Origin: a virus
Lineage: Duplodnaviria > Caudoviricetes
DNA length: 64,000 nucleotides
IMG/VR virus record: IMGVR_UViG_3300014641_000001
Span: 32,001 to 96,000 of that record
Reading direction: 5' to 3' (one strand)
Shown: positions 3,781-15,333 of the stretch, in pieces
Layout: each line of letters opens with the position of its first letter
Position numbering within the stretch: the stretch's first letter is position 1
Position numbers and translations under genes: made by a program
Notes under the pieces: model-generated
What the model saw: only the letters and a program-made list of their open reading frames with translations
What the model was told of the DNA's origin: nothing
Database searches by the model: none

Positions 3781-5153
3781 ATGGCTGATTTTAGAACTCT
3801 CGTAGAACTTATATTTGATAAAGCAAAAGCGAGAAATGAATTAAATAGCATTTTAAAGGAATTACAAAAAGACGCCAATTTAAAAACGGAAATAAAAGTC
3901 GGTACTTCTGAAGCAAAGAAGGCAAAAAAGGATTTAAATGAAACCGCTTCAGCAATTGGGAAGATTGTAACTGAATCTAGGCAGTTGTCAAAAGTTAATA
4001 CAATTAAGACATGGGCTGACAACAACACTAAAGCCATGAAGATGTTTGGTGATCAGATTCAGGACATCATCACCAAAATGGGAAAGGCTAATCTTTCGCT
4101 GTCTGATTTTAAAGGTCTAGATGCCGATTTTAATAGGATTAAAATAGCGTCCAGAGATATGAATTTACTTGGTAAGACCTGGGGTGATTCGTTTAAGGCA
4201 GACGCAAGCAAATTTGCTTCATGGTTGCTTCCTTCTGGCGGAATCATGACTGCCATTAGTGGACTGCGTAAAATGAAGGATTCTATCGTTGATATAGATA
4301 CAGCCATGACTAATCTATATAAGGTGTCCGATGAAACAGACTCAAAATATAGACAGTTTCTTCAAAGTTCAAATATAGAAGCCCAGAGACTTGGGAGAAC
4401 AGTATCCAGTCTCATTGAGCAAACTGCAACTTGGAAAAAACTTGGTTTTACCACTGATGAGTCAAGTGAATTGGCGAAAATATCATCAATTTATGCTAAC
4501 GTAGGTGAAGTGTCTGATGACACTGCTGTTTCGGATTTAGTGACAGCAATGAAAGCCTTTAACATTGCAGGATCAGACAGTATAACAATTGTAGATTCGC
4601 TTAACAAATTGGGTAACGAATTTGCTACCGATGCTGCCTCTCTCGGAGAAGGACTAAAAAACTCCGCATCTTCTCTTCGTCTTGCAGGAAACGATATAGA
4701 TCAGACTCTTGCTATGCTAACAGGTGGTACAGAAATTATTCAGAATGCAGGAGAAATGGGAAATGCTCTGAAAATACTGAGTATGAGAATACGAGGTATG
4801 AAAGGCGAGCTGGAAGCACTCGGAGAAGAATATGACAATGTGGAGTCAATATCAAAAATCCAAACCCAGATCTTGAATCGTACTGGCGGTACAGTAAATA
4901 TATTTGACAATAATGGAAACTTCAAGTCTACGTATGAGATACTAAAGGGAATATCAGAAGTATGGGATAAAATTTCTCAAACCGACCAGGCCGACCTTTT
5001 AGAAGTTATCGCGGGTAAACAGCGCGGTAACAGCGTTGCAGCTTTAATTCAATCATTCCAATCTGGGCAAGTGCAAAAGGCATTAGAGGCTTCAATGAAC
5101 TCTGCTGGATCAGCTTATGAAGAACAGAGCAAATGGATGGAATCAATTGAGGC
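3781..5153 (+). CDS. Tape measure protein, exon 1 (TP901-type core domain)
   Basis: IDTAMTNLYKVS...IVDSLNKLGNEFA...GNALKILSMRIRG...AGKQRGN; ORF runs into group I intron P1. Confidence 0.9.
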
Positions 5154-5563
5154 AGACTTTTGCCTCGTTGCGTAGAAATATGTAACATTAATATATTTAA
5201 TTGCAGGTAATGCCTTAGAGCCTTACACCACAATATAGGGGAAACCACTATATGATGGTTTTACAACGTAAGGATTGGCTGTTCATGCAGCGAAGCACCC
5301 TAACGTATTCCGTAGACCATACGGTACTTTAGTCGAGGGTGAACGTTCAACGACTAGATTCATGTCGAGATTTGGACTAGAGAATAAGGGTGGAAATCCC
5401 GAATATCCAGATCAATAATCGTAGGGCGCAAATCGCAAATGGCGTGGGTGAAATTCCCTTAAATCGAAAAGGTATACTCTCAGCACGTAGTGGTGGAGAT
5501 GAAGAAATAGTCTAGTCTCATATGAAAATATGAGTTGATTGTTATTATAAAAAAGGAGTTTGA

Positions 5564-5697
5564 ATGAAAAAATTCGTCAAAGAATATTCAACTCAATTAA
5601 CCCCATTAAAGGAGTATTTGGAGAAGGAATTAAATCCTCTTTCGCAAAAGTGATCTAAGGAGTAACTACATATAAGTACACAAATTCTGGAGAGTAA
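5564..5697 (+). pseudogene. Degenerate small ORF inside intron 1
   Basis: SD AAGGAG + MKKFVKEYSTQLTPLKEYL, then frameshifted GIKSSFAKVI*GVTTYKYT. Confidence 0.45.
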
Positions 5698-5761
5698 TTT
5701 ATATTACTCTCCTATTTTTATACAAGTAAATAGATAATTAAAGGAGAATAAACGTGGATAA

Positions 5762-7198
5762 ATGAACAAAAAATATAATCAAGAGAAGGCAATAGAAATT
5801 ATGCAGTCATACGGATATAAACTTGACGACATATATAAATCATATAACCATAAACTAAGAATAGTTGATAATGATGGATATATCTATTATAGAAGCCTTG
5901 GTGACATATTATCAAATAAAACACCCACGAAATTTGGTCGTGGGAATCCATTTACAATTGAGAATATTAAAAATTACACTTATCAAAATAATATACAAAC
6001 ACAATTGCTGTCTGAATCTTTTACTGAATCTAGTGGTTTATTATTATGGAAGTGTAGTTGTGGCAAATCATATACATGCTCGTGGAATGCATTTGAAAAC
6101 GATAAACATTTATGCAATGATTGCTCGATTAAAGACAGAGGACTTAAGCAAAGAATCAACAAGGCTAATGTAATTGATAAGGTTAAAAGTATGGGCTATC
6201 ATATTGTTGAAATTGCTGATGATATATGTGTTTTCGACAGCATAAAAATATCAGACGATTTAGGATATAAATATTATCCAGTAATAAATAATATCATATA
6301 CGATAAAAGACCTTTTAGGTTTCATAAATCAAATATTTTTTCAATCGATAATGTAAATAACTATTTTAGGCTAATTGGAGAAACTGATTATACATGCGTT
6401 AGCAATGAATATATTGACAATACCTCTGACTTGGAAATATTACATAAAAAATGCGGAACGGTATTTAATGCCAAACTCACTAAACTAACTGACAAAGGAG
6501 TTAGTTATTGCAATATGTGTCCAAAATGTAAAACGACTAAAACCGAATCGGTTCACGCATCAGTTCTGAAACAAGTATTTCTAAATAAACATCCTGATTC
6601 TGTATTAGAGGATAAATCTTGCATAAACTCAAAGACAGGCTACTCGCTCCCTACTGATATCGTTAATCACAGATTAAAATTGGCAATAGAAATACAAAGT
6701 TCTCTACATGATAATAGAAAGGATATTGATCTGTATAAAAAGAATTTCTGGATTGATAGAGGGTATGATTTTTATTCTCCCGATATTAGAGATTATTCTA
6801 TATTGGGTATGATACAATTATTTTTTAAAGATATCGAATCAATACCAAAATATATAGATTATAACTTTTCGAATTGTGTGGATTTCATCGAAATACAAAA
6901 CATGATTGATTCGGGGCATACGATTATTGAGATAGCTAGTATTAAGAATATCTCAGAAGCTACAATAAGGGGGCTCGTCACTGACAAAAAGGTAATCTTG
7001 CCTCCCGACTATAAAAATAAAATATTTAAAATAAAACCCATATTAAGGCTTGATGTTAAGGGAAATGTAATTAAAAGATATGAATCGTTAAGTTCTATAT
7101 CAAGAGATGGATTCGCCACAGGTACCATTAGAAGAGTATTAAAAGGTAAACAAAAGTTGTCGTATGGAACGAAATGGATTTATGACATAAAAAAATAA
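5762..7198 (+). CDS. Intron-encoded homing endonuclease-like protein (Zn-ribbon repeats, Vsr/EDxHD-like nuclease, NUMOD1-like C-terminus)
   Basis: CxC/CxxC repeats, LPTDIV...LAIEIQSSLHD, C-terminal KPILRLDVKGNVIKRYESL...KWIY; lies in a peripheral intron loop. Confidence 0.75.
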   Translation: MNKKYNQEKAIEIMQSYGYKLDDIYKSYNHKLRIVDNDGYIYYRSLGDILSNKTPTKFGRGNPFTIENIKNYTYQNNIQTQLLSESFTESSGLLLWKCSCGKSYTCSWNAFENDKHLCNDCSIKDRGLKQRINKANVIDKVKSMGYHIVEIADDICVFDSIKISDDLGYKYYPVINNIIYDKRPFRFHKSNIFSIDNVNNYFRLIGETDYTCVSNEYIDNTSDLEILHKKCGTVFNAKLTKLTDKGVSYCNMCPKCKTTKTESVHASVLKQVFLNKHPDSVLEDKSCINSKTGYSLPTDIVNHRLKLAIEIQSSLHDNRKDIDLYKKNFWIDRGYDFYSPDIRDYSILGMIQLFFKDIESIPKYIDYNFSNCVDFIEIQNMIDSGHTIIEIASIKNISEATIRGLVTDKKVILPPDYKNKIFKIKPILRLDVKGNVIKRYESLSSISRDGFATGTIRRVLKGKQKLSYGTKWIYDIKK

Positions 7199-7244
7199 AA
7201 ATAACAATCAAAGAATGGTATTGCGAACCATTCTAAATATATCG

Positions 7245-7434
7245 AAAAACACAACAGTATGAAGCTTCATTTCAATCACTATCACAAACTATTATTAATT
7301 CAAATTTCTTAAAGTTTCTTATAGATTCTGGTACGACATTTAATAATGTATTAGATAAGACAATAAACGGCTTTGGTGTTTTGTCTACTACGCTTTCCGG
7401 TGCTGGTATAGCGGCATTCATTAAAAACTACGGT
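7245..7434 (+). CDS. Tape measure protein, exon 2 (not in ORF track)
   Basis: 190 nt reading KTQQYEASFQSLSQTIINSNFLKFLIDSG...GAGIAAFIKNYG; in frame with exons 1 and 3. Confidence 0.85.
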
Positions 7435-8124
7435 TAACTCTGTAATAAGAGTTACGCTTAAATTTCCGAGGGATTTAAGTTGGCCTATCATGGGGAAGAA
7501 TATATCATAATGGCGATATAAACAATTCCATGGGACGAAAGTTTTAAAATAAAAAGAGGATTAATTGCTTGAAAGTGTAATGCTCACTACTCTTCTATTT
7601 TAGAAGAAACCGAAAAATAAGGTAAATAAGTCAAACGGTTTACACACCGGAGTGAGATTTCTAGGGATAAAAAATAATTCCCGACAGATGTACAATCACC
7701 AACGAAGCAGCTAGCCCTATCTGTGTATCACGATGTATAATCCGATGGTAACAATTGCGCAAGCAATGTCGGGATAAGATCATTAATGATAGGGAGTGTT
7801 CAGAGAGCACCACTCCTCACAGTACATGAAAGCCATATTTCATTGTGCTGTTAACGCATGTTCCAAAGTGTACACGATATCAACGCTTCACGAGGCGCTG
7901 GATATTATAATGTTGTAAAAGATATGGGCTACAGCCTATCATTGAGCGTAATATGGAAAAGTTAATCGTTTCTATGTTATGTATCAAAATAGTTATGTAG
8001 ATTCTCCCATATTTTTAAATAAAGTATTTATTCTCCTTTTTATATGATTGAATACTAATATAATGTACCATCCTATATATTGTTTGAATATAATACAATA
8101 AATCAAATGGAGATGTATAGAAAT

Positions 8125-8283
8125 ATGACGAAAAAAATTATTAATTTGACCGAAGAAGGCGAAGCTCTAGGATATCCAAAAACTCCAGATTCTGAGATGA
8201 TAGAGATGGGTATATTTGATGGAAAGATAATCAATTTTATAAAAGTAATGTTTATAAAGATAGTTAAAATGATGAAAAGGTAG
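8125..8283 (+). CDS. small hypothetical protein (intron cargo)
   Basis: Part of ORF 8080-8283; GGAG upstream; ends in a terminator hairpin; start uncertain. Confidence 0.5.
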   Translation: MTKKIINLTEEGEALGYPKTPDSEMIEMGIFDGKIINFIKVMFIKIVKMMKR

Positions 8284-8298
8284 TCAATAGACTACCTT
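8277..8298. terminator. Bidirectional terminator-like hairpin between convergent cargo genes
   Basis: AAGGTAGTC-AATA-GACTACCTT. Confidence 0.6.
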
Positions 8299-8458
8299 AT
8301 TCCTCGTTCTTTTTATTTTTGTCGTTATCATTAACATGTTTAATTTCTGAGAACATCTCTACCACATATTCTGGTCTAGGCGTACTTGGATACTGTTCTC
8401 CTTTTTCATTGGTGTTATTAGTACTTGTCATCTTGATAACATTTTCATCGTCTGACAT
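8297..8458 (-). CDS. small acidic protein, 53 aa (intron cargo)
   Basis: SD GGAGG; MSDDENVIKMTSTNNTNEKGEQYPSTPRPEYVVEMFSEIKH...; overlaps the upstream gene's end. Confidence 0.6.
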   Translation of the reverse strand: MSDDENVIKMTSTNNTNEKGEQYPSTPRPEYVVEMFSEIKHVNDNDKNKKNEE

Positions 8459-9023
8459 TTATTTCTCCTCCTTCTATATGAATATTTTGTATATTATTAT
8501 TTATAAATTTGGTCTCATAGTAATCAATACCGACACCGAATGTATACGATAAAATAGATACTGCGAAAGTGATGCATATGAAATAACTCAACGATTTATG
8601 TTTCATGTTCTTTGTAATGTTCACATTTCTATTATGAATGGCTTCATTAATAAAACATTCACAGAGCATATTATTTACATGTATATCTGCTTTTTTAATA
8701 TGCTTTTTATCTGTCATTTGATATGTTTGTGAGATCGCAACAGCCATATCTTTAATTGGGAAATAACTCATTTTATAGCCAGAGTATGCTTTATAAAACT
8801 TGTGCAAGCAAATTATAAATAAAATCGTTGACAAAGCGCAAAATATCAAGTAAACAATAGTACACCATGATAAAGAAAAACGAACAAATTGTGACCAAAG
8901 TAATATTTGTGCACTACCAAGTATTGTAAGAAACGTAATACAAGTATTAATTTTATTACTTAATCTATCGGAATATTCTATCTCCTTATAATATAAATCT
9001 TTGTATTCTTCAAGCAATTCCAT
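8445..9023 (-). CDS. 3-TM membrane protein, SLATT/Pycsar-effector-like topology (intron cargo)
   Basis: Three hydrophobic segments; SD AAGGAG. Confidence 0.7.
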   Translation of the reverse strand: MELLEEYKDLYYKEIEYSDRLSNKINTCITFLTILGSAQILLWSQFVRFSLSWCTIVYLIFCALSTILFIICLHKFYKAYSGYKMSYFPIKDMAVAISQTYQMTDKKHIKKADIHVNNMLCECFINEAIHNRNVNITKNMKHKSLSYFICITFAVSILSYTFGVGIDYYETKFINNNIQNIHIEGGEINVRR

Positions 9024-9309
9024 ATGATGATGTTCTCCTTTGTATCATATGGAATATTTTACCATCGTCAATACAATAAAACAAGAAACAGATGTTTGTC
9101 GATGAGGATATAAAATCGACATATTTCGACATTTATAATATTGAGTTAGTCATTAAGCTGTATATTAAAATAACATAAGCTGAACCCCTCTTTTATACTA
9201 CAATCTTGCGTCTTACTAGCTTCATTGTTTTCAAAATTTTTATACCTATCTGGAAATTTCTTCCACTCCATGATATAATAATTTTTAAAAGAGATACAGG
9301 AGGGATTGT

Positions 9310-9900
9310 ATGAAAAGGTTGGTTTTAGGGTTGTTATGTATCACTGTATGTTTACAATTAAGTGCTTGTGATAAAAACACGTCGGTCACCACAAGTAAAG
9401 AAAAAGAAACAATAACAGAATCATCAAATTTATCTGAAGATGAACAGAAAGCAGAATTAAATGCGATCTATCAAGAAATTGACGAAGCAAATAAATACTG
9501 TAATGATTTGGCAAAACTATTATATGACTATTGGGACAACCGTGAATATGAAGCGTTTTTTGACCACAGTGTTTTTTTGGAAAGAGATAAAAAATATAAT
9601 ACATACGGGAATTATAATAGTGGTAGTTTTTATGGCGATGCAAAGACCTGCTATGAATATCGTGATAAAATTGAAAAAAATATGGAAGATGCACGTCAAA
9701 GATTGAAAGAATTAGAGGTGTCTGAAAGTGTACAGGGGTATTATGATTCTGTAAAGAAGTTGTATTTGAATGTCGATGCATATCATAGTTTTGCATCTGA
9801 TTTCCCAGAAGGTTATTCAAAAATTACATATTCTCAAACATTTAGTAAACATCAATCAGAATACGACTCTTTAATAAGTGAATTAAAGTTTGAGCAGTAG
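9310..9900 (+). CDS. Lipoprotein (intron cargo)
   Basis: Signal peptide with lipobox LSAC; SD AGGAGG; followed by a terminator. Confidence 0.8.
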   Translation: MKRLVLGLLCITVCLQLSACDKNTSVTTSKEKETITESSNLSEDEQKAELNAIYQEIDEANKYCNDLAKLLYDYWDNREYEAFFDHSVFLERDKKYNTYGNYNSGSFYGDAKTCYEYRDKIEKNMEDARQRLKELEVSESVQGYYDSVKKLYLNVDAYHSFASDFPEGYSKITYSQTFSKHQSEYDSLISELKFEQ

Positions 9901-9969
9901 TATATAAAAAGTTTGCTGACAGTATTAGTATATTCTAATAAATTATTTTTAGATATGATCACAAAATTT

Positions 9970-9998
9970 AGAGCCAGTTATTTGACTAGCTCTTTTTT
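9970..9998 (+). terminator. Rho-independent terminator inside intron 2
   Basis: AGAGCCAGTT-ATTT-GACTAGCTCT then a T-tract. Confidence 0.65.
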
Positions 9999-10063
9999 GT
10001 ATATAAAAGGGAGCAAAAATGCACTATCATATACGCTACAATTTTTCGATTTACTAATATCAA

Positions 10064-10489
10064 TCAAAACTTACTTCCACAGTTATTACACTTCCAAGTC
10101 TTACCGTTATCTCCCATGCCGAAAATTCCAAATGCAGCTATCTTTGCGACCTTTTTTGTTGCGGATATTTTAGAGAGGTTTGTGCTGCTACATGTGGGGC
10201 ACTTTGGAACATTTTGATGTGTACCTTTTGGAATGTATCCGGCTAAAAGACGAGTATCGCTTCCGGTAGTGGGTAAATCTTCTCTTGTGATTAAATCTGT
10301 GTCGGAAACATTCCCACAACAACATGTAATTAGAATTCCATCTTTTAACTTGCAATAATCTGAATTTACTCTATCAAATTTGTCATCTATTCCCTCTTTT
10401 ACAAATATTGTATTCCCGCATTTTTCGCAGAGTATTTCTATTTCTATTGGTGATCCATTCTCGTTATTAATAGCTTTTTTTAAATACAT
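10064..10489 (-). CDS. Zn-ribbon protein with C-terminal CxxC-hydrophobic-CxxC module (intron cargo)
   Basis: CEKC, CPTC...IAAFGIFGMG...WKCNNCG; SD GGGAGG before ATG 10489. Confidence 0.75.
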   Translation of the reverse strand: MYLKKAINNENGSPIEIEILCEKCGNTIFVKEGIDDKFDRVNSDYCKLKDGILITCCCGNVSDTDLITREDLPTTGSDTRLLAGYIPKGTHQNVPKCPTCSSTNLSKISATKKVAKIAAFGIFGMGDNGKTWKCNNCGSKF

Positions 10490-10518
10490 AGTTCCCTCCC
10501 TATACATATTTTATTATG

Positions 10519-13500
10519 CAACTGCAATCCCTCGGAAAGTCGATTGTGAACTTTAATAGCATTATAGCATCTGGGACAGGAACAAATCAATCTTTTGCGA
10601 AAGTTTTAGAAGGGATTAGCACACAGGAAAAAATCAATTTAGTAACTAGAAGCAGTCTAACCGATGCTCAAAAGATTGGTATTCTTGCAACAGCTGGTTT
10701 AAGTGCAGAGGAATTGAAAGCAGTAGCTTCCACTACTACTCTCTCCACTTCACAGACCACTGCAACAGCAACTACAACTGGATTCGGTACTGCCCTTAAA
10801 GGTCTTTGGGCAACCATGATGGCAAATCCTTTAATTGCAATAGGAATGGCCGTAACAGCTATCTCAACAGCATGGAATATTTATAATCAGTCCATCGAAA
10901 AAACAAGACAAGCTTCGGCCGATGCGGCGGGCGCATTAAACGAAACCACCTCATCAATTAATGATTATGCTGAAAAGTATAAAAAATTACACGATGAACT
11001 TGTCAAGGCAAATACTACCGAAGAACGTCAACATGAAATAAAAAGTGACCTTCTTGCGCTTCAACAAGAATTAAATGATAAGTACGGAGATGAATATGGC
11101 AAATTAAATCTTGTTACAGATGCTTATAATGATCAAACCGATGCAATCCTAGCAAGAAACAAAGCCGCGGCGCAGAATTATCTTCTTGAAAATAGAAAAG
11201 GTATAGCCGATGCTACAAAACAAATGGAACAAGACCGCACTTATACACTTGGTAGCACTGGTAATTTATCAAACGACTATGCAAAAGAAATATATAATAT
11301 AGCGTCAAAATATTCAGACCAGGGCATAAAATTAGAGTCTCTTAAAAATAACGGAGTAGATGCCTATACTATTAAGTTTTATGGAAATGCAGAAAATGCA
11401 GAAAAAGTTATACGTAGCCTCTCCAATGAGATCCAAGATCTTGGGCATAAATACGAAGATAATAATTTCATCAATGGATTCTTAGATAACTCAACAAATG
11501 CACTTAAAGAGAATCAAAAAACATTAGATAAATATGATGAAATATATAACTCTGCATTGATGTCTCAAATTGCAACTGACAATGAATTGTCGGGAGGTTA
11601 CGAGAAGGCCACAAGTGCCGTTAAAGCATATAACGATGCACTAATTTCTGGTGACGAATCTAAAATATTATCGACAAGAGATGACCTCAATGAAGTTAAA
11701 AATTCCATTGATTTAACAAGCGAAAACTGGAAACGATACGGGAATGTAATGACTGATATTTTCAGCCAGGCAAACACAGGGCTATACGATTTCAGAGATG
11801 CACTCTCTTCAAACAACGATAATATCAAAGACTATGCTAAAAGTCTAAAAGGTTTATCAAAGACAGATGTAATGTCCATGGCAAATGATGGGCAAGATGA
11901 TAACTTTGATAAAATAGTTAAATCTGCTGATAAATATGGATTAAGCGTTAACCAGGTCATCGATGAACTAATCAGATTGAAATACGTTCAAGATGATATC
12001 TTCAAGTCTGGTGAAGCAACATTCACTCCTCTCTCCAAACAAGAAGTAATTTCAAACATCAATTCACTGTCCGAAGGTTTTGAATCCCTTGATAAAATTA
12101 TGAAGAGCATATCCGACAAAGACAATCCATTTGACTATGCTCTGCTTGATGATGGTAAGTTTACGAAGATATTCAGCACCCTAAATGATGGTGGTGAAGC
12201 TTACGCTAACTTCATCGAAAAAGTGTCGTCATCACCCAAAGATATAAAAGCTACTCAAAGTGCATTTAACGATCTGGTAACAACTTGGATTGATAGCTCT
12301 GGTGTATTAGATGGGCTTACCGAAGACAATGCTAACCTTGCTACTGCTATGCTTCAGAATATGGGTGTTGCTAATGCCGAAGAAGTTGTAATGACAAGAC
12401 TTTCCATTGTACAGGAACACCTGGCAGCGCAAAAAGCTTATACGGCAGAAATGAGTGACGCTCTCGCCAATGCTACAGCTAGTGAAATTCCAGGAATCAT
12501 AGAAGAAGCAACTCAAAGTGACATAGCTAAAGTTGCACTGGCTGGTCTGGTATTAGAGAAAGAATTCTTCAATGGAAATGCACTAGATACTAGTGGTGAC
12601 ATTGAGAATATTATCTCTCTTGTTGGAGTAATTGGAACTGCTAATACGGCACTCAAAGCTTTAAATACTTTAAAGGCCGGAGGTAGTGTTGGTGGCAACA
12701 TAGGCGGAAAAGAAGGTTATGAAGCTCTTGTAAGAAATGCAGAAAAGGAAGCCGAAGACGCAATAAAATCTGCTTCCGAATATAAAGGCAAGGGAGCAAA
12801 TATTAATGCATCGTATACAGGTGGTACAAAAACAAATAAACCATCTGGCTCTAAAAAGGATAAAAAAGATTTCTCAGAAGTATTTGACTGGGTAGAAACT
12901 ACAATTAAACGAGTAGACGAAAAGATCCAAGACATCCAGAGTAAAATTTCTGATACATCAAACTGGAAGCCTAAAAACACTCTTACAGATACAGCTATTG
13001 ATGAAATGGCAAATAAAATAACTGCCTTACAGTCTCAGTTAGATACATACCAGAAGAAGGCAGATTCTTACAACCTCTCTCCCACTTACATAGACAAAAT
13101 CAAAAATGGCACTCTTGAAATTGAAACTGTTACTGATGAAGTAATTGCAAACAATATCAAAGGTTATCAAGAATGGTATAACAAAGCTGAAGATGTTCGC
13201 AAGAAGATAGATGAAACAAAAAAGACTTTGAAAGAACTTGCTCAGACCAAACTTGAAAATATTATCAATGATTTTGATAGTCTTGTTTCGTTAATGGATA
13301 AGTACGCTTCATATAGTAATAATCTTTTAAATCTACAAAAGGAATTGGGCGAATCTATTACCAATACAGATTATGAACGGTTAATTAATCAACAGGAAGC
13401 AATTTATAAGCAGTTGCATAGTAAGTATAATTCGCTATCCAATGAATTATCTAAAGCGGTAAGTAAAGGAACAATTGAGGTGGGTTCAAATGAATGGCGT

Positions 13501-15333
13501 AAATACAACGAGGAATTAATTGCTGTAAATTCCTCTATGAATGATGCTGTTTCTTCAATGAACGATTTCAGAAAAGCACTAATCAACTTGCCATTTGAGG
13601 AGCTAGAGAGGATTTCTAGTGCACTCGATGGAATTAACAATGGAATCAACACCATGTCTGATCTAATTGGCGACGATGGACTTTTAGACGGAGGAATGCT
13701 TACATCTAAGGGTCTTGCTAAAATTGCTCTATTAGGACAACAGTATGCTAATGCTAAACAACAAGCGGCCGATTACGAAGAAGCCATTAATGCTATTAAT
13801 GAGATGTATGAAAATGGTTCTCTCACACAGGCCGAGTATAACGAAAAACTCAATGAATATACCAACGCTCAATTATCAGCAGTAAAAGCTACGAAAGAAG
13901 CCGAACAAGCTATCTTGCAGTTTAGATATAATGCAATCCAGGCACAGATAGATGATATGAATAATTTAATTGCTGCCAAGAAGAAAGCATTGCAGACTGA
14001 AAAGGACTATCAGGATTATCTTGAAAGTATTAGCGAGAAACAGACTGACATTAATAATTTACAGGCAAAGATTGATGAACTGTCACTGTCTACCGATAGG
14101 AAAGATATTGCACAGAGATTACAGTTAGAACAGCAGCTATCAGATGCAAAGAAAGATTTGGCTAAGACACAAGCTGACTATGCTTATGATAAAACTATTG
14201 AAAGCCTAGATAAGCAGGAAGAGGACTATCAGGACGCAAAGAAAAAAGAGCTTGATGAACTTAAGTCAAATACTGATGCACAGAAGAAGGTAATAGAAGA
14301 ATATCTCGGACAGGTAAAAGATAACTACAAAACAGTCTACAATACCCTGACTAAGTATGGAACCGATTATAATGTTACCATGACTAGCGAACTAACTTCT
14401 CCATGGGAGTCAGCTAATAGCGCCGTGTCTACATTTAAAGACGCTGTGTCAGAAGCTATCTCACAGATTAATATTGACATTGCTAATATTGATTTGTCAA
14501 AGCTTACAGAATTAGTGAGTACAATGCAAGGATTCTCCGCAGGTGGAAATAATTCGGCTTCATTTGAGGATATTACCGGTTCCGGAACGTGGCAAAAGAA
14601 CTCTAGGGGCTGGTGGTACGGAGCTTCTAATGATGATTACGCTTCTGATGGAATCTACACCATTGGAGGTAAGCAGTATAGCTTCAACGAAGATGGCTAT
14701 ATGAAAACTGGTTGGGACGATAGCAATGGTGATTGGCGGTATTTTGAGCCTGAGAATGGTCAGATGGTTAAATCTGCATGGAGAAAGTCTAAAGATGGTA
14801 AAGACTACTATCTGAAATCTGATGGTACTATGGCTACAGACATGGCTATCAAAGCGAAAGACGGCAACGGGTATTATTATATTGATGACAGTGGTGTATG
14901 GGACGGAAAAACAATATCCTATGATGATGTGAAAAAGAGAAATATCACTGTTGGATATAAAAGTGGCACTACTAATTCTAAGCCAGGATTAAAATATGTT
15001 AACGAAGATGGGCCAGAATTGATTGTTGCTAAAAATGGTACTGTTCTCAATTCAGTAGGTGGCGATACCATCTTTACAAAGAATATGACTGATAAGCTAT
15101 GGGATTTTGCTATTGATCCAAGTAAGTTTGTGTTGGCTAATATGCCGAAGTATGATTATAGGGCAATGGCTATGGCTAATCGAAACAACGTTTCTATGAA
15201 TATCGATAGCCCACTACTTGTAGTACAGGGTAACGCAGATAAAGAAGTATTAACTCAAATGAATGAAAGACTAGATACTTTCATTAACAAGGAAATACCT
15301 CAGAAAATGATGGAAATGTCAAAACAACATTAA
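10519..15333 (+). CDS. Tape measure protein, exon 3, with C-terminal cell-wall-binding repeats
   Basis: Long coiled-coil/Ala-rich ORF with no SD before ATG 10516; WWY/YSFNEDGYM/YYLKSDGTM repeats; followed by tail genes. Confidence 0.9.
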   Translation, partial: QLQSLGKSIVNFNSIIASGTGTNQSFAKVLEGISTQEKINLVTRSSLTDAQKIGILATAGLSAEELKAVASTTTLSTSQTTATATTTGFGTALKGLWATMMANPLIAIGMAVTAISTAWNIYNQSIEKTRQASADAAGALNETTSSINDYAEKYKKLHDELVKANTTEERQHEIKSDLLALQQELNDKYGDEYGKLNLVTDAYNDQTDAILARNKAAAQNYLLENRKGIADATKQMEQDRTYTLGSTGNLSNDYAKEIYNIASKYSDQGIKLESLKNNGVDAYTIKFYGNAENAEKVIRSLSNEIQDLGHKYEDNNFINGFLDNSTNALKENQKTLDKYDEIYNSALMSQIATDNELSGGYEKATSAVKAYNDALISGDESKILSTRDDLNEVKNSIDLTSENWKRYGNVMTDIFSQANTGLYDFRDALSSNNDNIKDYAKSLKGLSKTDVMSMANDGQDDNFDKIVKSADKYGLSVNQVIDELIRLKYVQDDIFKSGEATFTPLSKQEVISNINSLSEGFESLDKIMKSISDKDNPFDYALLDDGKFTKIFSTLNDGGEAYANFIEKVSSSPKDIKATQSAFNDLVTTWIDSSGVLDGLTEDNANLATAMLQNMGVANAEEVVMTRLSIVQEHLAAQKAYTAEMSDALANATASEIPGIIEEATQSDIAKVALAGLVLEKEFFNGNALDTSGDIENIISLVGVIGTANTALKALNTLKAGGSVGGNIGGKEGYEALVRNAEKEAEDAIKSASEYKGKGANINASYTGGTKTNKPSGSKKDKKDFSEVFDWVETTIKRVDEKIQDIQSKISDTSNWKPKNTLTDTAIDEMANKITALQSQLDTYQKKADSYNLSPTYIDKIKNGTLEIETVTDEVIANNIKGYQEWYNKAEDVRKKIDETKKTLKELAQTKLENIINDFDSLVSLMDKYASYSNNLLNLQKELGESITNTDYERLINQQEAIYKQLHSKYNSLSNELSKAVSKGTIEVGSNEWRKYNEELIAVNSSMNDAVSSMNDFRKALINLPFEELERISSALDGINNGINTMSDLIGDDGLLDGGMLTSKGLAKIALLGQQYANAKQQAADYEEAINAINEMYENGSLTQAEYNEKLNEYTNAQLSAVKATKEAEQAILQFRYNAIQAQIDDMNNLIAAKKKALQTEKDYQDYLESISEKQTDINNLQAKIDELSLSTDRKDIAQRLQLEQQLSDAKKDLAKTQADYAYDKTIESLDKQEEDYQDAKKKELDELKSNTDAQKKVIEEYLGQVKDNYKTVYNTLTKYGTDYNVTMTSELTSPWESANSAVSTFKDAVSEAISQINIDIANIDLSKLTELVSTMQGFSAGGNNSASFEDITGSGTWQKNSRGWWYGASNDDYASDGIYTIGGKQYSFNEDGYMKTGWDDSNGDWRYFEPENGQMVKSAWRKSKDGKDYYLKSDGTMATDMAIKAKDGNGYYYIDDSGVWDGKTISYDDVKKRNITVGYKSGTTNSKPGLKYVNEDGPELIVAKNGTVLNSVGGDTIFTKNMTDKLWDFAIDPSKFVLANMPKYDYRAMAMANRNNVSMNIDSPLLVVQGNADKEVLTQMNERLDTFINKEIPQKMMEMSKQH

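Follow-up and report, generated by a model that had tools for sequence, protein, structure and literature searches.

The tape measure protein (TMP) gene of a tailed phage appears to be a single gene in three exons, interrupted by two unrelated introns of group I type whose splicing would give an mRNA for one 2125-amino-acid (aa) product. We put the probability of this reading, which rests on sequence comparison, at about 0.8. The gene lies in a 64,000-nucleotide (nt) stretch, here called the window, which comprises bases 32001–96000 of a single 124,265-bp contig with about 33% G+C (IMG/VR record IMGVR_UViG_3300014641_000001). Its relatives are large phage contigs of 120–134 kb in IMG/VR, and the tail-gene neighbourhood of the TMP locus is likewise that of a phage. 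The closest named proteins, found with the start of exon 3 as the query, come from Lachnospiraceae, Clostridium and Lacrimispora.

The three exons and their uninterrupted homologues

In the list of open reading frames (ORFs), the locus is represented by a 464-aa ORF (3781–5175) and a 1605-aa ORF (10516–15333), with four further ORFs between these pieces (Table 1). Joining the three exons gives 6378 nt in one open frame whose sole stop is the terminal one, reading ...WMESIEA|KTQQYEASF... across the first joint and ...IKNYG|QLQSL... across the second. This is, to the base, the reconstruction proposed in the original prediction. The first joint could slide by one base (A5154 = A7245), and the requirement for a terminal G sets it at 5153|7245; for the second, just one placement combines the correct frame with a terminal G and a U at −1. 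Left unspliced, the exon 1 frame runs seven codons into intron 1 and stops at 5173–5175, and an in-frame UAA (7435–7437) stands directly 3' of exon 2. As had been predicted, exon 2 is missed by the ORF track, because it has no start codon. Skipping this 190-nt exon would shift the frame, so each intron must be removed individually.

Exon 1 contains the PhageMin_Tail domain PF10145 (residues 200–412, E = 1.4e-21, 77.8 bits against a cut-off of 33.2), and exon 3 contains choline-binding repeats (PF19127, E = 1.3e-11; also PF19085). This domain, together with full-length colinearity with long TMPs beside tail genes, places the product among the PF10145-containing, SPbeta YomI-like TMPs. With the start of exon 3 as the query, we recovered uninterrupted relatives of 2124–2537 aa that carry both PF10145 and choline-binding repeats. 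The original prediction had proposed an alignment to intron-less homologues as its check, and when 14 uninterrupted homologues were aligned with MAFFT, the joined protein proved colinear with them, with no gap at either joint; the gap-free matches across the joints include proteins of 2124–2139 aa. The best full-length match (P0036, 2129 aa) aligns with query residues 1–2125 at 58.8% identity, and the second (P0027, 2124 aa) is 62.3% identical. Homologues of 2100–2500 aa align to exon 3 from about their own residue 520 onwards. The annotated TMPs of SPbeta, Sundance and other phages were also matched by tblastn; tblastn with the N-terminal part of exon 3 and megablast of the locus, both against the phage collection, returned no match.

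Two close relatives, L001 and L002, encode residues 1–523 as one open stretch (96% and 92% aa identity), so that exon 2 is ordinary coding sequence there. Both have the empty site of intron 1 (...ATTGAGGC|GAAGACC... in L001 and ...ATTGATGC|GAAAACA... in L002), which is uninterrupted where the window has 2091 extra bases. Exon 2 also carries the mark of purifying selection: it differs from L016 by 15 synonymous and 2 non-synonymous changes, a ratio of non-synonymous to synonymous change (pN/pS) of 0.04, and from close relatives overall by 7–15 synonymous and 1–2 non-synonymous changes. From this evidence, the locus is a predicted single TMP gene in three exons, and the hidden exon 2 is a genuine piece of its coding sequence.

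For annotation, the true product would be one 2125-aa TMP rather than 'hypothetical' fragments of 464 and about 1600 aa. The expectation that such a gene would be entered as separate fragments is borne out, since the protein database has only a 1595-aa fragment (P0001) for this locus and the TMP of Thomasclavelia phage TR-TP1 is entered in GenBank as separate coding sequences (CDSs). The same error affects public records, for example TR-TP1 and numerous database entries whose sequence begins MQL.... If each TMP residue accounts for about 0.15 nm of tail, as a rule of thumb has it, 2125 aa predicts a tail of about 320 nm.

Table 1. Positions of the exons, predicted introns, guides and intron ORFs of the TMP locus (window coordinates).
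Feature	Position	Strand	Description
TMP exon 1	3781–5153	+	457 codons + 2 nt (1373 nt); PhageMin_Tail domain; colinear with uninterrupted homologues
Intron 1	5154–7244	+	predicted group I (IA-like), 2091 nt; core 5154–5534; RF00028, covariation, empty site
Intron 1 ORF	5762–7198	+	478 aa, endonuclease-like, candidate homing endonuclease; phrog_559 'HNH endonuclease', E = 1.8e-19
TMP exon 2	7245–7434	+	190 nt, 63 codons + 1 nt; without start codon
Intron 2	7435–10518	+	predicted group I-like, 3084 nt; core 7435 to ~7865; terminal G 10518
Extended 3'-exon guide of intron 2	7463–7475	+	UUUCCGAGGGAUU; 13-bp duplex with exon 3 positions +8 to +20
Intron 2 segment pairing with 5' exon −11 to −4	7537–7545	+	GAAAGUUUU; RNAalifold, 92.3% of cells paired
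Cargo ORF	8445–9023	−	192 aa; 99.5% identical in L001; no family match
Cargo ORF	9310–9900	+	196 aa, lipoprotein-like N-terminus (...LQLSAC...)
Zinc-ribbon ORF	10064–10507	−	147 aa; antisense, start 11 nt from 3' splice site
TMP exon 3	10519–15333	+	1604 codons + stop; choline-binding repeats near C-terminus
Guide target in exon 3	10526–10538	+	AAUCCCUCGGAAA

Ribozyme cores and exon recognition

Intron 1 matches the Rfam group I model RF00028 over its full length (window positions 5144–5534, model positions 1–253) with a score of 56.2 bits (cut-off 50; E = 9.7e-14). This match appeared only when 441 nt were searched and was missed by the default filters: a default scan of the 64-kb window at the gathering threshold, and one of 5.7 kb with E up to 10, returned nothing. 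Because intron 1 scores above the cut-off in a search of less than 500 nt and is silent in the two longer scans, filter loss hides genuine group I introns in AT-rich phage DNA. The P1 pairing joins GAGGC (5149–5153) to GCCUC (5162–5166), with C5153 opposite G5162, and P10 joins UUUU (5158–5161), just 5' of the P1 strand, to AAAA (7245–7248), the first bases of exon 2. The guide UUUUGCCUC is thereby complementary to the ligated exon 1–exon 2 junction, and the intron has both this P10 and a terminal G (G7244). A hairpin at 7212–7234, ten bases ahead of the terminal G, recurs with the same loop and a changed stem in the gut phage MT835469 (L012).

A 16-nt core motif of intron 1 retrieved 60 IMG/VR loci, and an alignment of 15 relatives contains 43 covarying pairs, which include P2, P5, P6, P7.1/7.2, P7 and P9. 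By blastn, 5412–5534 is 71–73% identical to the annotated lysK intron of phage K, and 380 nt of the intron match MT835469 at 72.6% identity. We conclude that intron 1 is a predicted group I intron, and its make-up would be that of a classical mobile phage intron, with an IA-like core, an endonuclease ORF in the 3' extension, and short P1 and P10. By tblastn, the 478-aa ORF matches gp28 of TR-TP1, an annotated HNH endonuclease inside the TMP gene; searches of Pfam, NCBIfam and PDB gave no match, so that the endonuclease class rests on the PHROG label. Neither the endonuclease nor either intron core has a paralogous copy in the 124-kb genome, and a 15-nt match to the S element of intron 1 at genome position 103261 gave no Rfam hit.

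Intron 2 is unrelated to intron 1. A 17-nt motif retrieved 22 IMG/VR loci, with 14–15 true homologues, all at the identical TMP codon, and blastn of the core against the sequenced-phage collection gave no match. On an alignment of 13 distinct cores (A1), RNAalifold predicted 82 pairs, 36 with compensatory change. When completed by hand to include a pseudoknot, the structure has 91 pairs, with 93.8% of cells paired and 37 pairs compensatory. A control in which partners were slid by one to three columns left 37–45% of cells paired, and none of 500 shuffles reached the observed value; the structure was derived partly from the sequences on which it was scored, and the slid control is generous.

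The topology is P3-[P4-P5-P6]-P7-P3'-P8-P7', with a P3/P7 pseudoknot and at least one covarying pair in each of P3, P4, P7 and P8. P3 pairs 7556–7560 with 7814–7818 (GAGGA with UCCUC) and is followed by J3/4 and P4 (7567–7569 with 7706–7708, within AAUUGCUUGAAAG paired to GAAGCAGC). Beyond P4, P5 has a long extension, P6 is a branched domain, and a 2-nt J6/7 leads into P7, in which 7803 and 7805–7809 form six pairs with 7859–7864 around a bulged A7804. The closing pair of P7 (G7803–C7864) covaries with A-U, and G7805–C7863, the predicted guanosine-binding site, is invariant (12/12). On the 3' side of P7 follow a 4-nt J7/3, P3', an abutting P8 (7819–7851), a 7-nt J8/7 and P7'. The P, Q, R and S-like motifs of the intron resemble the RF00028 consensus; P7.1 and P7.2 are absent between P3 and P8, hence the core is not IA-like. 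We read intron 2 as a putative divergent group I intron to which Rfam gives no match.

Several other assignments were tried and dropped. A P3 formed by CCUAUC with GAUAGG is not kept in L005, and an S-like motif at about 7910 considered as P7' is not conserved. Group II introns were rejected for both insertions: intron 1 starts with AGACU and intron 2 with UAACU, each has a terminal G, no Rfam group II family matches, and neither a domain V nor a reverse transcriptase domain was found. IStrons were also rejected, as no intron ORF matches a transposase family at threshold; the only matches to insertion sequence (IS) zinc-finger models are 12-residue CxxC segments with E of about 1e-3.

The state of these cores bears on whether the gene is alive. 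Since the sequence is an assembled contig and no characterised isolate stands behind it, the phage might be defective and its TMP gene broken by insertions that no longer splice. We consider this highly improbable, because neither a stop nor a frameshift interrupts the 6378 nt of the three exons, and every ribozyme-defining pairing is intact in the window copy. Moreover, over its first ~620 nt intron 2 has a single aligned difference from L001, whereas exon 2 differs from the sequence of the L001 contig at about 8 of 189 nt.

The predicted contacts of intron 2 with its exons, its most distinctive feature, extend beyond P1 and P10. P1 itself pairs exon GGU (7432–7434) with GCC (7483–7485), in a G-N-U with G-N'-C pattern whose U·G at the 5' splice site is invariant (13/13) and whose −2 pair covaries (AU in 8, CG in 2, GC in 2 and GU in 1). 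P10 pairs UUG (7480–7482) with the invariant CAA (10519–10521) that opens exon 3. Duplexes equivalent to that of the extended guide, 9–14 bp long, are present in 8/8 relatives with a located 3' exon, in five sequence variants that track synonymous changes in the Leu-Gly codons of exon 3. This covariation with synonymous exon changes argues for exon recognition at the RNA level. On the 5' side, the pairing of GAAAGUUUU includes one covarying pair (A-U in 9 and G-C in 4). A search for a second acceptor of the guide, as in alternative splicing, found none, the guide core having a single exact target in the 124-kb genome. With its covariation, intron 2 may illustrate the way in which a group I ribozyme locates a 3' splice site that lies kilobases downstream.

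Intron 2 ends in G in 8/8 relatives, and its last three bases are ATG, TTG or ACG. This variation makes the ATG start of the 10516–15333 ORF incidental, and it bears on the idea that the TMP is made unspliced as a 464-aa N-terminal and a ~1600-aa C-terminal polypeptide, the insertions being mobile DNA between two genes. An ATG (10516–10518) does stand immediately ahead of exon 3, many database homologues begin MQL..., and gene callers give such fragments. We nevertheless regard separate polypeptides as very unlikely: relatives have TTG or ACG as this triplet, synonymous changes in the exons are matched by covariation in the intron RNAs, exon 1 breaks off in mid-codon relative to its homologues, and exon 2, which has neither a start codon nor a ribosome-binding site, is under strong purifying selection.

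Cargo genes and the path to a spliced message

The core of intron 2 always falls within the first ~430–470 nt, and the whole intron ranges from 890 to 4416 nt among relatives. In the window, about 2.6 kb of cargo separates the core from the 3' splice site. The 196-aa cargo ORF has a weak match to the lipoprotein signal region NF002824 (residues 2–55, E = 0.0013), and the matches of the 147-aa ORF to DUF7479 and zinc-ribbon models are below threshold. A C-terminal zinc-ribbon module of ~50 aa, with two CxxC pairs flanking a hydrophobic stretch, is found in 6/8 intron 2 relatives, in the same antisense position. Its homologues include those in L001, L005, L021, L027 and L033, and in L027 the gene starts about 95 nt from the 3' splice site. 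The best minus-strand promoter-like site (10590–10561; TTGATT, 18 nt, TG-TATAAT) lies within 70 nt of the start of exon 3, inside that exon, and points towards the zinc-ribbon gene, the transcription of which would therefore start within TMP coding sequence. The remaining cargo differs among the window, L001 and L002, although their ribozyme cores are nearly identical.

We propose that late transcription would run through the whole 11.5-kb locus, and that each intron RNA would fold into a ribozyme at its 5' end, hold its flanking exons by base pairing and excise itself by the two-step, guanosine-initiated reaction. In intron 2, the core would be complete in the first ~430 nt, with the 3' splice site 2.6 kb further on, past three cargo genes that are each expressed on their own, one in sense and two in antisense orientation. 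The 3' site would be chosen by the terminal G and by a long guide, with 3 bp, an internal loop and 13 bp to the 3' exon; the 5' exon would be held by the 3-bp P1 with its U·G wobble and by the extra pairing of ~8 bp. The in-frame stops at 5173–5175 and 7435–7437 would limit ribosome entry into the ribozyme cores, and a reference cited in PMC4227781 reports that splicing can suffer when ribosomes translate across a 5' splice site. Splicing itself, its efficiency and the read-through of the terminator-like hairpins described below are inferred from the sequence. The original prediction called for two sequential splicing events. Two events are well supported by the group I features, the covarying guides and the empty site, and we find no support for their being sequential.

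Several observations weigh against this proposal. First, Rfam gives no match to intron 2 with E up to 10, whether 5.7 kb or 511 nt is searched, even with lax filters. Second, the last 5'-exon base at intron 1 is C, paired as C5153–G5162, and not the U of the usual U·G. Third, terminator-like hairpins with T-runs lie on the + strand of both introns, at 5689–5712 and 9970–9998, and antisense transcription units between the core and the 3' splice site of intron 2 could hinder cis-splicing. Finally, exon 3 could be translated separately from a GTG at 10543, which is preceded by a weak Shine-Dalgarno-like GGAAAG and is the start chosen by gene callers for P0001. The hairpin at 5689–5712 is upstream of the endonuclease ORF and that at 9970–9998 comes after the lipoprotein-like ORF; cis-splicing would need read-through of them.

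The second of these points is softened by precedent. The last 5'-exon base is described as 'virtually always a U (or exceptionally a C)' (PMC4227781), so that C5153 does not exclude group I identity. The homologous intron in MT835469 (L012 3969–4000) sits at another TMP site (~residue 404) and likewise has CAGGC| with a C-G pair, a 6-bp P10 and a terminal G, whereas the intron 1 family members L042 and L061 appear to keep U·G (...GGU|). Intron 1 and its MT835469 homologue are thus predicted natural cases of the rare C-G variant, at two insertion sites.

The hairpins and the antisense genes between the core and the 3' splice site raise another possibility, that exon 2 and the core are joined in trans, via the long guide, to a separately initiated 3' part, or that anti-termination by the phage is a condition for cis-splicing. 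The first ~430 nt contain the complete core, and the 13 bp formed by the guide with exon 3 would suffice to retain a separate RNA. We think this unlikely, however, because short introns of 890–909 nt (L027 and L033) keep the long guide, which is therefore not specific to the long, terminator-bearing versions, and because there is no convincing + strand promoter just upstream of the intron 2 3' splice site. Trans-splicing group I introns are known only from some organelle genes and as engineered ribozymes, and are not known from phages, which also counts against joining in trans.

Within the three-exon, two-intron reading, we tentatively suggest, at somewhat less than even odds, that intron 2 represents an undescribed, Rfam-invisible group I lineage specialised for cargo. 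Its long guides would be bipartite (3 + ~8 bp to the 5' exon and 3 + 9–14 bp to the 3' exon), and ahead of its 3' splice site it would tolerate 0.9–4.4 kb of genes that can be exchanged, are transcribed independently and are in part antisense. Under the same suggestion, the antisense zinc-ribbon gene may belong to the element's own biology, and splicing may be under read-through control or occur in trans.

Related introns and other insertion sites

Split TMP genes have precedents. Phage introns are on record in terminase, polymerase, lysin, capsid and tail genes, and in Bacillus cereus-group prophages Tourasse and Kolsto (2008) described TMP genes with the group I introns TMP-IVS1, IVS2, IVS3a and IVS3b, at three sites to each of which P1 and P10 are adapted (PMC2504315). 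The present locus resembles these in its host gene family, its alternative insertion sites, the presence of up to two introns per gene and the intron-less alleles in relatives. As with the B. cereus-group introns, which are IA1 or IA2 ribozymes, there is kinship with other phage introns and adaptation of related introns to different sites. The locus differs from them in its host phages and sites, in the 2.6 kb of non-endonuclease, partly antisense cargo, in its far longer guides and in an intron 2 that is not IA-like.

The lysK intron of phage K (ORF30/ORF32), with its endonuclease ORF31 (AY176327), is similar in that a structural or lysis gene is split by an endonuclease-bearing intron, and the 71–73% nucleotide similarity covers the P7–P9 part of the intron 1 core. 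In phage K, however, the ORF precedes the matched 3' half of the core, whereas the ORF of intron 1 comes after the complete core, and the host genes differ. The layout of intron 2 brings two other systems to mind. The T4 nrdD (sunY) intron reportedly has a compact 5' core and, after it, a long 3' extension that bears an ORF and puts the 3' splice site at a distance (work of Michel and colleagues in Genes Dev, 1992). Intron 2 shares with it a 5' core whose 3' splice site lies hundreds to thousands of nucleotides away and is returned by base pairing; unlike it, intron 2 holds several independently transcribed genes, including antisense ones, and has a 3'-exon guide of 9–14 bp plus 3 bp.

In IStrons (CdISt1 and BcISt1), too, the 5' end is a group I ribozyme that kilobases of foreign genes separate from the 3' splice site, and unusual 5' splice-site nucleotides are documented for these elements (Tourasse et al., 2014, PMC4227781). 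Their cargo, however, is an IS200/IS605 or IS607 transposon, and no transposase was found in either intron here. Thus, the three-exon TMP gene follows an architecture known from other phages. It varies from that architecture in its long bipartite guides, in its antisense cargo and in an intron 2 on which the Rfam model fails, and the closest analogues of its layout are IStrons and the T4 sunY intron. Since the default filters missed both introns, Rfam-based surveys may give too low a count of group I introns in phages.

Finally, TMP genes of this family carry introns at four or more further sites, which include ~residue 258 (L017), ~328–337 (L020 and L027) and ~404 (MT835469 and TR-TP1). The PhageMin_Tail region is thus a probable insertion hotspot. 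In TR-TP1 (L096, PQ571309.1 23364–31193), the TMP is spread over the CDSs gp27, gp29 and perhaps gp31, with the 'HNH endonucleases' gp28 and gp30 between them. The first interruption falls at ~residue 400–408 and contains an S-element-like match to the intron 1 core, so that the GenBank record looks as if it holds unannotated introns. TR-TP1 was isolated directly from a faecal sample, which shows that phages with such split genes are viable.

The original prediction saw in the splicing a possible control point for tail assembly, a role that finds no support. Close relatives do without intron 1; given these relatives and the introns at several TMP sites, selfish mobile elements that are phenotypically neutral would fit better than regulators. 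We also noted 1.3–1.9-kb interruptions of the TMP frame in L017 (9374–11279), L020 (6486–7774), L027 (1046–2317) and L012 (2114–3762), and the database proteins P0019–P0024 and P0035 start at residues 274–340, which fits interruptions at ~258 and 328–337.

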